A stretch of 56,720 bases of DNA, taken from the NCBI GenBank assembly GCA_030647325.1, contig JAUSJN010000070.1, positions 1 through 56,720 of the forward strand, given 5' to 3'. The translations under genes and the position numbers were made by a program. This document shows, piece by piece, positions 26,443 through 48,330 of the stretch. This DNA comes from Nanobdellota archaeon (GTDB taxonomy: Archaea; Nanobdellota; Nanobdellia; Woesearchaeales; GW2011-AR9). Under the pieces are notes generated by a model. That model did not search any database. It was not told where the DNA came from and saw only the letters and a list, made by a program, of their open reading frames with translations. Position 1 is the first letter of the stretch; each line of letters begins with the position of its first letter.

Positions 26443-26546
26443 TGAGCCTGCAGGGATTCGAACCCCGATATCGATTTTGGACACCTTTATGTTGCCCAAA
26501 TTAACCGGTCCGAAGCCGATTGTGCTATCCGTTACACCACAGGCCC
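26443..26546 (-). tRNA. tRNA-Arg(UCG) with an insertion of about 31 nt after the anticodon arm (variable-loop region)
   Basis: Minus-strand read: GGGCCTG TG GTGT-AACGGATA-GCAC A ATCGG-CTTCGGA-CCGGT, then 36 nt (a normal variable loop is 5 nt), then CGGGG-TTCGAAT-CCCTG CAGGCTC A. Confidence 0.75.
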
Positions 26547-45288: not shown

Positions 45289-45672
45289 CTAGTGCTTCTT
45301 GCTTCTCTCTGCTAATTTAGCTTCTATAGCTTTCTCCAGATCTCTTTGGGTCACAAAATTGAGCGGATTCCAAAACTCTATATATTTCTTTAAGATCGCC
45401 ACTTCTTCCCCGCCAGCGGTCTGCTTCAATTCGTTGATGATGAGAGTCATCTTCTGATTCATCTTTTCCTGCTCATGGCGTATCTCCATCAAGTCGTCAC
45501 TGAGCGTCTTAAAATCCTTGTTGAGTTTATTGGCCCGTTTGATGAAATCATTCTTGAGCACATCCACTTCCCGGAGAAGATTATTTGCTTTACTCTCTAA
45601 TCCTTTGACCCAGACATAGAGTTTTGCCGGATCAAATCCAGAAGCCGGAGGCATTTCCACTGGTTTAGCCAT
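45289..45672 (-). CDS. coiled-coil protein (127 aa)
   Basis: Heptad-rich. Upstream of and co-oriented with 44652-45230. Confidence 0.6.
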   Translation of the reverse strand: MAKPVEMPPASGFDPAKLYVWVKGLESKANNLLREVDVLKNDFIKRANKLNKDFKTLSDDLMEIRHEQEKMNQKMTLIINELKQTAGGEEVAILKKYIEFWNPLNFVTQRDLEKAIEAKLAERSKKH

Positions 45673-45754
45673 ATCTTTCTTTTTAAGGAAGAGAACATAA
45701 TAAAGTTATGTGAGTATTGGAGAGTGGGAAACTTTGTAATTTTAAAATTCTTTT

Positions 45755-45819
45755 TGCGCCGATGCAAGAAAACTATAAGTTTTCTGCACAGAAATATGAT
45801 ATTCTTCATATTTCTTGTG
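45755..45819 (+). repeat. hairpin-module locus F: alpha-beta pair
   Basis: GC[A]AGAAAAC-tataa-GTTTTCTGC and CAC-AGAAATATGA-tattct-TCATATTTCT[T]GTG. Confidence 0.75.
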
Positions 45820-45969
45820 GCGGTGCGACGGTTGCTACGCAACCTACACGACAGCCCGTAGGGCGCATCCCCAGTCGTGCCGCACGCCATGGCGCAAGAC
45901 AAACCGGGGGACGTCCCTTACGGGGTGGTTTGTAGGACGAAGTCCGTCTTGCCGCCATGATGGCGTGCA
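45820..45969 (+). other. 150-nt strongly GC-rich, helix-dense non-coding segment (candidate structured RNA; strand unknown)
   Basis: Hairpins GGTTGC-tac-GCAACC, CACGAC...GTCGTG around GCCC-gta-GGGC, and GGAC-gaa-GTCC. Long-range helix GCACGCCAT-GGCG-CAAGAC (45882-45900) with GTCTTG-CCGCC-atg-ATGGCGTGC (45946-45968). Confidence 0.5.
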
Positions 45970-46035
45970 AGAAGTTACTAGTATCAAATAGTTTAGAAAA
46001 TATAATAAACCCTTCTTCTATATAACATCTAAAAG

Positions 46036-48330
46036 ATGGTGCTGGAAAAATCTAAAGCTTGTTTTGAATATGAGACTTATCACGAAGGAGAGAACAAGAT
46101 CCTGAAGATATCCTGCGAAAACTGCAGTTTCCCTCCTTCTATCGAATACAGCGATATCTGCATGTCAAAAGTGATCGACACCCTCCAAGCAGTTACCGGT
46201 GTTACCACCATCATCCTTTCTCAGCAGCGTGAATATCAATACGACTATGATCAAGTCTCACTCCTCAATGAGCTAGTTTCTGTATACAAGCATCTGACCC
46301 AGGAGGAGCGCTTCAGCTATTCGCATTTAGTGGTAGATCCCCTGCACGAGCGATACATCCGCAGCTCCTACGCGCAATTCCAGCGGCTTATCTCCAAAAG
46401 CCTGAAAGAAGATCCTTTTGCAGCATTTGTCGAACTAAAACGTCTGGAAACGAGAGAAAAAATAAAATTGAATTCTCTCATCGATGCCCGGCATGCTGCC
46501 AGCCAGCGGAAATTCTTAACTGTCCTTGACGCGGTCATCAAGACCATCGAGAATATCAAACTGATCAAACATCTCATGCCCCTCAGCCATGATTATAAAG
46601 TAGGCCAGAGGGAAATCTACGGCAATATCTTCCATCCCACCACCAAACCGGATTTCATGTTCACCAAGCTGCTCACCGAGTTTCCGGAAGGAAATCTGGA
46701 AGACAGCTACAACTTTAAAGTAGGAGAAGATGAGTGCGAAGTGAATGTTTTTTCTTTTGACGACAACGTAAAAGTGCTTTACCATCTGACCCCGCCGGAA
46801 TTTATTTTCACCGAGGAAGAATACGAACTGCTGGATGATGCCAAACGCATCATGTCTGAACACAAGCCGTCAAAAGAAGAATTTGTCGATCCGGCGCGCA
46901 TGCGGGAAGTATTCTTCAACATCGGAAAAGATATGCTCACCGATTTAGCTCAGCATCAGAATCTACGCATCAAAGATGAGAAGATGAGCCAATTGGCCCA
47001 GGCCCTGCTTCGGCATACCGTCGGTTTCGGGTTGATCGAGCTTCTTCTTTCAGATCCTAAAGTGCAGGACGTCAACGTCAACTCGCCTAACGGAGCGCTG
47101 CCGGTATTCATCGTGCATCAGGATTATGGAGATTGCTACACCAACATCTATCCCACTATCCTAGAAGTGGAAAGCTGGGCTACAAAATTGCGTCTTATCT
47201 CTGGACGGCCACTAGACGAAGCTAATCCTATTTTAGATACTGAACTGAAGGTAGAAGGTTTCACTTCCAGGGTTTCTGCCCTTACCGCGCCGTTAAGCCC
47301 GACTGGCTTAGCTTTTTCATTTCGGCGACATAGAGATTTTCCCTGGACTTTTCCGCTTTACATGCAGCCAAAAATTAGATTTGTCGATGCTATCGGCGCA
47401 GGATTGTTAAGTTTCTTGATTGAGAATAATGCCACCATCCTGGTTGCAGGAACCAGAAGTTCTGGAAAAACTTCCCTATTAGGTTCCTTCCTTACTGAGA
47501 TCATGCGGCGTGCCAGGATACTGACTATTGAAGATACCTTTGAACTGCCTTCTGAATCCATCCGTAAGCTAGGCTACAATATTGAATCTCTCAAAGTCGC
47601 ATCTGCCTTATCGGCGCCAGGTTCGGAAGTTGATCCGTCCATAGGGATAAGATCCACGCTTCGTCTAGGTGATTCGGCCATCTTTGTCGGCGAAGTTCGT
47701 TCGAAAGAAGCCATCGCCTTATTTGAAGCCATGCGGGTCGGAGCTGCTGCCAACGTAGTGGCGGGAACTATCCACGCTGACTCTCCGTATGGAGTATTTG
47801 ACCGGGTGGTCAATGATATCGGTGTTCCGAGAACTTCATTCAAGGCCATCGATATCATCGTGATAGCTAATCCGGTCATTTCCGGATTGAAAAAATACAA
47901 ACGCATCTTACGCATCACCGAAGTGCGCAAGGAGTGGGAAGAAGATCCTCTTCGGGAAAATGGCTTTGTCGATCTGATGGTGTACAATCCAGTGACCGAT
48001 AAGCTGGAGATCACTGACGAACTGCGCAATGGAAATTCTGACGTCTTAAAGAGGATGGCCGGCAGGGTGAAAGAATTTGCCGGCGACTGGGATGCGGTAT
48101 GGAATAATATTCTATTACGGGCGAATTGCAAACAGGCCATCGTCGATGCTTTTTCTGAGACCGGCGATGAAAACATCCTGGAAGCAGAATTCGTCGTGAA
48201 AGCGAATGATATATTCAGGCTGATCTCCGAGAAAGTGAAGACCAAAAGCGGCAAGACGGATACCGATAAGATCTTATTTGAATTCAAGGAATGGCTAAGG
48301 AAAGAGTCTAAGAAGAAACAGGAAGAATGA
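46036..48330 (+). CDS. FlaI/VirB11/GspE-superfamily secretion (type IV filament) ATPase with a roughly 330-aa N-terminal extension
   Basis: VGFGLIELLLSDPKVQDVNVNSP, Walker A GTRSSGKTS, Walker B RILTIEDTFEL, His box GTIHADSPYGVFDR. Confidence 0.85.
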   Translation: MVLEKSKACFEYETYHEGENKILKISCENCSFPPSIEYSDICMSKVIDTLQAVTGVTTIILSQQREYQYDYDQVSLLNELVSVYKHLTQEERFSYSHLVVDPLHERYIRSSYAQFQRLISKSLKEDPFAAFVELKRLETREKIKLNSLIDARHAASQRKFLTVLDAVIKTIENIKLIKHLMPLSHDYKVGQREIYGNIFHPTTKPDFMFTKLLTEFPEGNLEDSYNFKVGEDECEVNVFSFDDNVKVLYHLTPPEFIFTEEEYELLDDAKRIMSEHKPSKEEFVDPARMREVFFNIGKDMLTDLAQHQNLRIKDEKMSQLAQALLRHTVGFGLIELLLSDPKVQDVNVNSPNGALPVFIVHQDYGDCYTNIYPTILEVESWATKLRLISGRPLDEANPILDTELKVEGFTSRVSALTAPLSPTGLAFSFRRHRDFPWTFPLYMQPKIRFVDAIGAGLLSFLIENNATILVAGTRSSGKTSLLGSFLTEIMRRARILTIEDTFELPSESIRKLGYNIESLKVASALSAPGSEVDPSIGIRSTLRLGDSAIFVGEVRSKEAIALFEAMRVGAAANVVAGTIHADSPYGVFDRVVNDIGVPRTSFKAIDIIVIANPVISGLKKYKRILRITEVRKEWEEDPLRENGFVDLMVYNPVTDKLEITDELRNGNSDVLKRMAGRVKEFAGDWDAVWNNILLRANCKQAIVDAFSETGDENILEAEFVVKANDIFRLISEKVKTKSGKTDTDKILFEFKEWLRKESKKKQEE

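Follow-up and report, generated by a model that had tools for sequence, protein, structure and literature searches.

A GC-rich island between two divergent archaeal promoters consists of head-to-head three-way-junction units and is probably a nested composite of a mobile repeat family

Locus F, a GC-rich island at positions 45755-45969 of the 56,720-nt window (the whole stretch of DNA analysed here, contig JAUSJN010000070.1), is probably a nested composite representing an undescribed, REP/REPIN-like family of structure-constrained mobile repeats of DPANN archaea. Its GC-rich domain is made of two inverted, back-to-back copies of one ~100-nt hairpin unit with a three-way junction. These units make up a family that is dispersed across genomes in differing copy numbers; they appear and disappear at orthologous sites and nest one within another. 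Compensatory changes keep the fold intact, on one strand per unit. Locus F is neither a housekeeping RNA gene nor an RNA gene specific to this locus.

The source genome (Nanobdellota archaeon, GCA_030647325.1; 958 kb, 42% GC, 90% complete) carries locus F between two divergent core promoters, both of which fire outward (Table 1). The upstream neighbour, on the minus strand with its start codon at 45672, encodes a 127-aa coiled-coil protein, and the downstream neighbour, on the plus strand with its ATG at 46036, encodes a 764-aa FlaI/VirB11-like ATPase that matches Pfam T2SSE and has close homologues in Nanoarchaeota/Woesearchaeota MAGs. GC content is 0.59-0.65 inside the island versus 0.31-0.44 in the flanks, which bears out the GC peak described in an earlier note on this DNA, and every helix listed there was recovered at its place. 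These are the CGCC (45757-45760) and GGCG (45819-22) that flank a double hairpin on either side, the GGTTGC/GCAACC and CACGAC/GTCGTG helices of the left unit, a composite helix that pairs 45882-45900 with 45946-45968, and the inner AAACC/GGTTT, CCC-ttac-GGG and GGAC-gaa-GTCC helices. The palindrome CGCC-N-GGCG occurs three times in locus F at a spacing of ~75 nt. A stretch of 161 nt reaches a minimum free energy (MFE) of -75.2 kcal/mol on both strands, with z = -3.0 (plus) and -3.9 (minus) against dinucleotide shuffles. The two overlapping open reading frames that the note had set aside as artefacts (45717-45935 plus and 45597-45902 minus) do exist, and they have no Pfam match.

Covariance model R1 gave exactly two matches in the window, corresponding to the left and right units of locus F (Table 1). 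Read on its own strand, a unit runs from P1, its closing stem, through an internal loop to P2, P3 with its knob, a GUA junction, P4, the return strands and an A-rich tail. P2 has the consensus GGCG + CAAGAC / GUCUUG-C-CGCC, and the P3 arm bears a conserved knob of 21 nt, GGGG-nnn-GCCC-UnC-GGGC. P4 is a hypervariable hairpin after a conserved GUAGG, with a GG start, a CC end and commonly a GAA loop. Invariant unpaired nucleotides are the knob GGGG and the GUAGG, and nearly all units have GTAGG before the P4 hairpin and CCGTC after it, a position that corresponds to the internal junction of the ~100-nt three-way junction.

Table 1. Features of locus F and its promoter spacer (positions in the window)
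Feature	Position	Strand	Details
Coiled-coil gene promoter block	45697-45727	-	ataataaagttatgtgagtattggagagtgg, also given as ataataaagttatgtgagtattgg; kept at equal distance from the gene in same-genus genomes
Lineage-specific filler between both promoter blocks	45728-45993		
Left unit, whole	45756-45901	-	R1 match 45799-45901, 83.5 bits, E 3e-19
Left unit outer end	45756-45764	-	GCGCC 45756-60 is the P1 3' strand (minus reading) and pairs with GGCGC 45891-95
GATG, remnant of small loop of left unit	45761-64		
Alpha-beta double-hairpin mini-element	45765-45817	- (canonical orientation)	53 nt, followed by TG 45818-19
Left unit body, three-way junction	45818-45901	-	
Left unit P2	45819-29 with 45881-88	-	GGCGG-TGCGAC with CGCACGCC
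Left unit P4	45830-44	-	GGTTGC-tac-GCAACC
Left unit P3	45847-52 with 45874-79	-	CACGAC/GTCGTG around knob 45853-73, enclosing GCCC-gta-GGGC
Right unit, whole	45882-45974	+	R1 match 45878-45975, 99.5 bits, E 3e-23
Right unit P1	45882-88 with 45962-68	+	GCACGCC with GGCGTGC
Right unit P2	45891-99 with 45947-56	+	GGCG-CAAGA with TCTTG-C-CGCC
Right unit P3	45900-05 with 45927-32	+	Bears knob GGGGGACGTCCCTTACGGGGT 45906-26
Right unit junction	45932-34	+	GTA
Right unit P4	45935-45	+	GGAC-gaa-GTCC
Right unit A-rich tail	45969-74	+	AAGAAG
ATPase promoter block	45994-46013	+	agaaaatataataaac, also given as cagaaaatataataaac; conserved in 13 same-genus genomes, ~45 nt before the start

At the third base pair of P4 (columns 198/258 of alignment A2), 23 of 55 units have A.G or G.A and 29 have A-U or U-A, so that a purine-purine pair is tolerated at this one position. 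Six units also carry tandem G.A/A.G in P3. The knob is a module common to several repeat families and found in many genera: a long palindromic repeat of a different family, ctctgtagaa...ttctacagag, bears the same 21-nt knob, GGGGGnnGTCCCTTACGGGG, at its centre and is present in the source genome at C50:1520-1740, C50:8700-8900, C33:8700-8900 and C12:12740-12940.

The earlier note had proposed a search for homologous islands in related MAGs and a covariation analysis; homologues were found, and they carry compensatory changes. Across 20 aligned homologous units, 96.3% of the cells pair and both sides have changed in 12 of the 25 pairs, a level that none of 500 shuffles reached, while slid controls paired at 36-45%. 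Four helices have covariation support. P1 was evaluated apart from the alignment because MAFFT could not align it: a unit's own 5' and 3' flanks gave -15.2 kcal/mol versus -10.7 when cross-paired between units (0/2000 permutations). Paired cells in 56 distinct units on R1 comprised 1238 Watson-Crick, 50 G.U, 6 A.C and 47 A.G/G.A combinations, where the G.U counts are not independent events, many being inherited from subfamily founders, and the alignment is one fitted to R1. MFE folds in the unit orientation were on average 3.4 kcal/mol more stable than those of the complements (Wilcoxon p = 0.0009). Even so, these measures all point the same way: selection acts on the fold of one strand per unit and hence on a single-stranded form, either RNA or single-stranded DNA. 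Because each unit has its G.U pairs on its own strand and the doublet is inverted, one transcript cannot hold both units in the selected fold. These results support the fold of locus F as a stable, evolutionarily maintained nucleic-acid structure.

Units were detected well beyond locus F. BLAST within the source genome, which has three units, revealed that 45885-45973 is 88% identical to a single unit at C69:6693-6792. At the family level, 25 of 114 genomes had BLAST matches, often with several in each, and the R1 census of the same family, which scored 34 candidates per genome and whose unit counts are therefore lower bounds, detected at least 150 units in 37 of the 114 genomes (0-16 per genome). 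Counts among 16 congeners ranged from none in four genomes to 13-16 in four, and an order-wide sample had units in 59 of 301 genomes, many of them with counts at the scoring cap. Adjacent units follow a strict geometry, with all 40 of 40 pairs head-to-head (-,+) and 32 of them overlapping by 21-24 nt at their 5' ends. Within a doublet, the 5' P1 strand of either unit is the 3' P2 strand of its partner, so only one unit is fully foldable per strand and the opposite strand has the other unit in sense. The overlapping 5' ends also leave no room for promoters, which argues strongly against independently transcribed RNA genes. One orthologous spacer with the same flanking genes contains doublets in opposite orientation in two genomes (L007, G070:C47, versus L011, G060:C26), reflecting either inversion of the quasi-palindrome or independent insertions.

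Comparison of orthologous sites revealed that the presence of units is patchy. With R1 at E<=0.1, none of 80 related genomes had a unit within 800 nt of its ATPase ortholog. The GC-rich domain, which the earlier note had interpreted as an RNA gene of the ATPase spacer, is instead one copy of a dispersed and patchy repeat that these relatives lack at that place. In 13 congeners the ATPase promoter block is kept, as is the coiled-coil block wherever the coiled-coil gene still adjoins. The DNA between the promoter blocks differs in every congener: one has ~48 nt there, some have other repeats and several have a small zinc-finger ORF. Because this DNA differs everywhere and relatives have no unit there, the corresponding stretch in the source genome is lineage-specific filler. 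The ATPase-upstream spacer of G059, G061, G062, G069, G071 and G072 contains a ~150-aa ORF with the motif CPFHxExTPSF...CYGC (e.g. L120:268-726, minus), which by eye looks like a CHC2 (primase-type) zinc finger; the source genome is without this ORF.

The second unit locus in the source genome, C69, allowed a closer comparison. This unit is antisense to both adjoining genes, and its flanks, when joined, have a contiguous match in six congeners. The site is empty in G071, while in G060, G061 and G065 the unit is absent and the flanking spacer has diverged. Only a bare hairpin, GCGCCAATGGTGGCGTGC, with an A-rich tail is present in G069, equivalent to the P1 hairpin without the three-way-junction core. 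Such solo GC-rich hairpins, GCGCCA-NGG-TGGCGTGC followed by an A-rich tail, were found at C30:19202-19216 of the source genome and at this G069 orthologue of C69:6693-6792; they are either landing pads for the core or scars of core loss by recombination between flanking CGCC-N-GGCG junctions, and both readings are DNA-level dynamics. The filled and empty C69 sites gave no convincing target-site duplication, and at locus F itself neither a clear target-site duplication nor a precise empty site can be defined because the spacer is too diverged.

The alpha-beta module within locus F belongs to another small repeat, CAAGAAA-hairpin-TTTCTGnnCAGAAA-hairpin-TTTCTTG, for which a regular-expression scan detected about two dozen copies in the 958-kb genome, in both orientations and with covarying stems. 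The locus F copy has its canonical loops on the minus strand and differs from the closest copy (C54:3432-3486) by a 7-nt deletion in one hairpin. It occupies a CGCC-N-GGCG loop of the left unit, the one that lies between P1 and P2. At this place 12 other doublets have GCGCC, then 3-6 nt, then GGCGG, whereas locus F has GCGCC-GATG-(53 nt)-TG-GCGG. Full-length homologues of the whole 45756-45975 element exist without the module, and in further unit copies alpha-beta modules or different inserts are found elsewhere in the unit. Alpha-beta copies likewise occupy differing positions in paralogous host repeats. Since doublets elsewhere lack the module and inserts lie elsewhere in other copies, the alpha-beta element is a later insertion; the earlier note had seen it as fused to the GC-rich domain, where other doublets have a mere 3-6 nt. 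With the module present, the P1 flanks of the left unit score only -4.8 kcal/mol, because the insertion separates P2 from P1.

A GC-rich island in an AT-rich genome is often the sign of a housekeeping RNA, and no SRP RNA was detected in this 90%-complete MAG by RF01857, a helix-8 motif search or Rfam on 20 GC-rich islands, both of which would favour a divergent single-copy housekeeping RNA at locus F, whether SRP RNA, RNase P RNA or a tRNA-like RNA. We consider this extremely improbable, given that the source genome has two further unit copies and relatives have as many as 16, that 80 relatives lack a unit in the corresponding spacer, and that Rfam gave only chance matches at E<=10. A window-wide Rfam search at the gathering score, which the earlier note had suggested, returned only an intron-containing tRNA away from locus F, and a permissive search of 45600-46100 returned only chance miRNA and snoRNA matches (E 0.08-9.6); ARAGORN predicted neither tRNA nor tmRNA at locus F. 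The tRNA gene, at 26443-26546 (-), has a 33-nt intron after the anticodon loop and scores 48.6 bits in Rfam, but ARAGORN, run with bacterial defaults, misses it. RNase P RNA has a partial match elsewhere (C1:5073-5227), cut by the contig end, and SRP RNA at locus F is excluded by unit copy number and missing synteny; locus F is neither of these RNAs, whose conserved motifs the earlier note could not match there. Reading the AUGAUG/GAU internal loop as a K-turn or as a box C/D or H/ACA element was rejected by eye, as there is no tandem G.A and the loop sequence is variable between copies. The proposal of a structured RNA of unknown class therefore holds for the fold and its absence from Rfam, but not for an RNA gene, since the units are multi-copy and patchy and the spacer of 80 relatives is free of them.

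Two other readings accept the family and dispute its nature. The units may be multi-copy small structured RNAs with regulatory or protein-scaffolding roles, or RNA elements of untranslated regions, for which dispersal would be secondary. Strong covariation in four helices, the excess of G.U over A.C (50 vs 6) on the unit sense strand, the invariant unpaired GGGG of the knob and GUAGG, and sense folds that are more stable than antisense folds all point in this direction. We nonetheless regard it as unlikely: the 40/40 head-to-head doublets with their 5' overlap prevent both units from being sense in one transcript and leave no promoter room, locus F lies between outward-firing promoters, the C69 unit is antisense to both of its neighbours, and many congeners have no units. 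Inspection by eye near the units likewise gave no conserved TATA/BRE at a fixed distance and no T-rich terminator 3' of them. Alternatively, the units may be architectural or regulatory DNA recruited by the host (protein binding sites, cruciform insulators, or replication or recombination signals) and selected rather than selfish, as the placement of locus F exactly between two divergent core promoters, its regularly spaced CGCC-N-GGCG palindromes and the conservation of the family across an order might suggest. We see only a slim chance of this, because the spacer functions in 80 relatives that have no unit there, close relatives differ in copy number from 0 to >13, and long-range compensatory changes together with the G.U asymmetry point to a single-strand fold rather than recognition of double-stranded DNA. 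The order-wide conservation of the three-way junction and knob and the strand-specific G.U pairs would fit a functional RNA or a host-recruited element equally well.

We favour a mobile repeat family, with locus F as non-coding repeat DNA built up in layers between the two divergent promoters. The first layer is the head-to-head doublet of ~100-nt GC-rich units, and the second is the alpha-beta mini-element, a later arrival in the left unit's small hairpin loop. The units probably propagate as mobile DNA, and a putative trans-acting enzyme would use their single-stranded fold as its substrate, most plausibly in DNA that is exposed as a single strand during replication. GC-rich hairpin loops of resident repeats (CGCC-N3-6-GGCG) may be favoured landing sites, a preference that would generate both doublets and nests. 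More tentatively, the three-way-junction unit with its invariant knob could be the cis-acting handle of an unrecognised mobilisation system for single-stranded nucleic acid, a possibility that we raise with considerable doubt. Such a system would be order-wide, would act on single-stranded DNA or possibly on an RNA intermediate, and would use an enzyme other than the canonical IS200/RAYT Y1 transposase; its preferred landing in resident GC-rich hairpin loops would account for doublets that are always head-to-head and overlapping and for the self-nesting together with alpha-beta modules.

Counting against a mobile repeat are the presence of only three units in the source genome, the missing target-site duplication and empty site at locus F, and the lack of a mobilising enzyme in our searches. 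REP/REPIN elements are mobilised by RAYT Y1 transposases, and a RAYT gene is typically flanked by the repeats. Y1_Tnp (PF01797) had no match in the source genome, which is 90% complete, and its distribution does not track that of the units, being present in 43 of 114 family genomes overall versus 4 of the 10 with unit-length BLAST matches. No unit lay within ~1 kb of 10 same-genus Y1 genes, and no GC-rich inverted repeats were seen beside the same-genus Y1 genes that were checked. Nor did any protein gene recur beside units at 16 loci, where only spurious ORFs across the repeat recurred. Phage and plasmid records had no match to the units, and we found no description of such repeats in DPANN archaea in the literature.

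These observations have consequences for how small archaeal genomes are read. A structured island of high GC content in an AT-rich DPANN genome should not by default be annotated as an RNA gene, the one described here being a nested repeat composite. Despite their supposed streamlining, genomes of ~1 Mb contain several families of tiny repeats that interact with each other, are under structural selection and reshape promoter spacers. The elaborate order-wide fold, the strict doublet geometry and the lack of an identifiable transposase make the family a tractable entry to a mobilisation or maintenance mechanism in uncultured archaea.

Among known repeats, the units are most readily compared with bacterial REP/BIME/REPIN elements, which are likewise short, GC-rich, extragenic hairpin repeats that differ in copy number between genomes, typically occur as inverted pairs, can fold into larger structures and keep their structure by compensatory change. 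REP-type palindromes (Di Nocera et al. 2013, PMC3733652) are 20-40-bp hairpins with an unpaired GTAG or CGTC tag at one end. A GTAG motif also adjoins a hairpin in the units, as GTAGG-hairpin-CCGTC, but there it lies at an internal junction and not at an unpaired end. Unlike the simple 20-40-bp REP hairpin, the unit has ~100 nt, a three-way junction and a conserved 21-nt knob, and the two units of a doublet share 21-24 nt. It is found in DPANN archaea, and there is no RAYT/Y1 gene in the source genome and none tied to or flanked by units. Membership in the REP/RAYT system fails on its defining enzyme, although in behaviour the units resemble REP/REPIN elements.

Miniature inverted-repeat elements (MITEs) such as the Neisseria Correia, pneumococcal RUP/BOX and Sulfolobus SM elements are also small non-coding repeats (100-250 bp) with inverted-repeat symmetry that insert in intergenic DNA and in each other and vary in presence between relatives. 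In contrast to MITEs, the units have no autonomous IS with matching ends that we could find and no clear target-site duplication, and they are structurally constrained over their whole length on one strand rather than at the termini only; the inverted repeats at their ends follow from the quasi-palindromic make-up of the element as a whole. To our knowledge, neither the non-autonomous, IS200/IS605-derived PATEs nor integron attC sites have a three-way-junction architecture. The units further differ from PATEs in that no TnpA is encoded in the source genome or linked to units, and from attC sites in having no core sites (GTTRRRY). What the units have in common with both is that function appears to lie in a strand-specific single-strand fold, whose sequence drifts while its structure stays.
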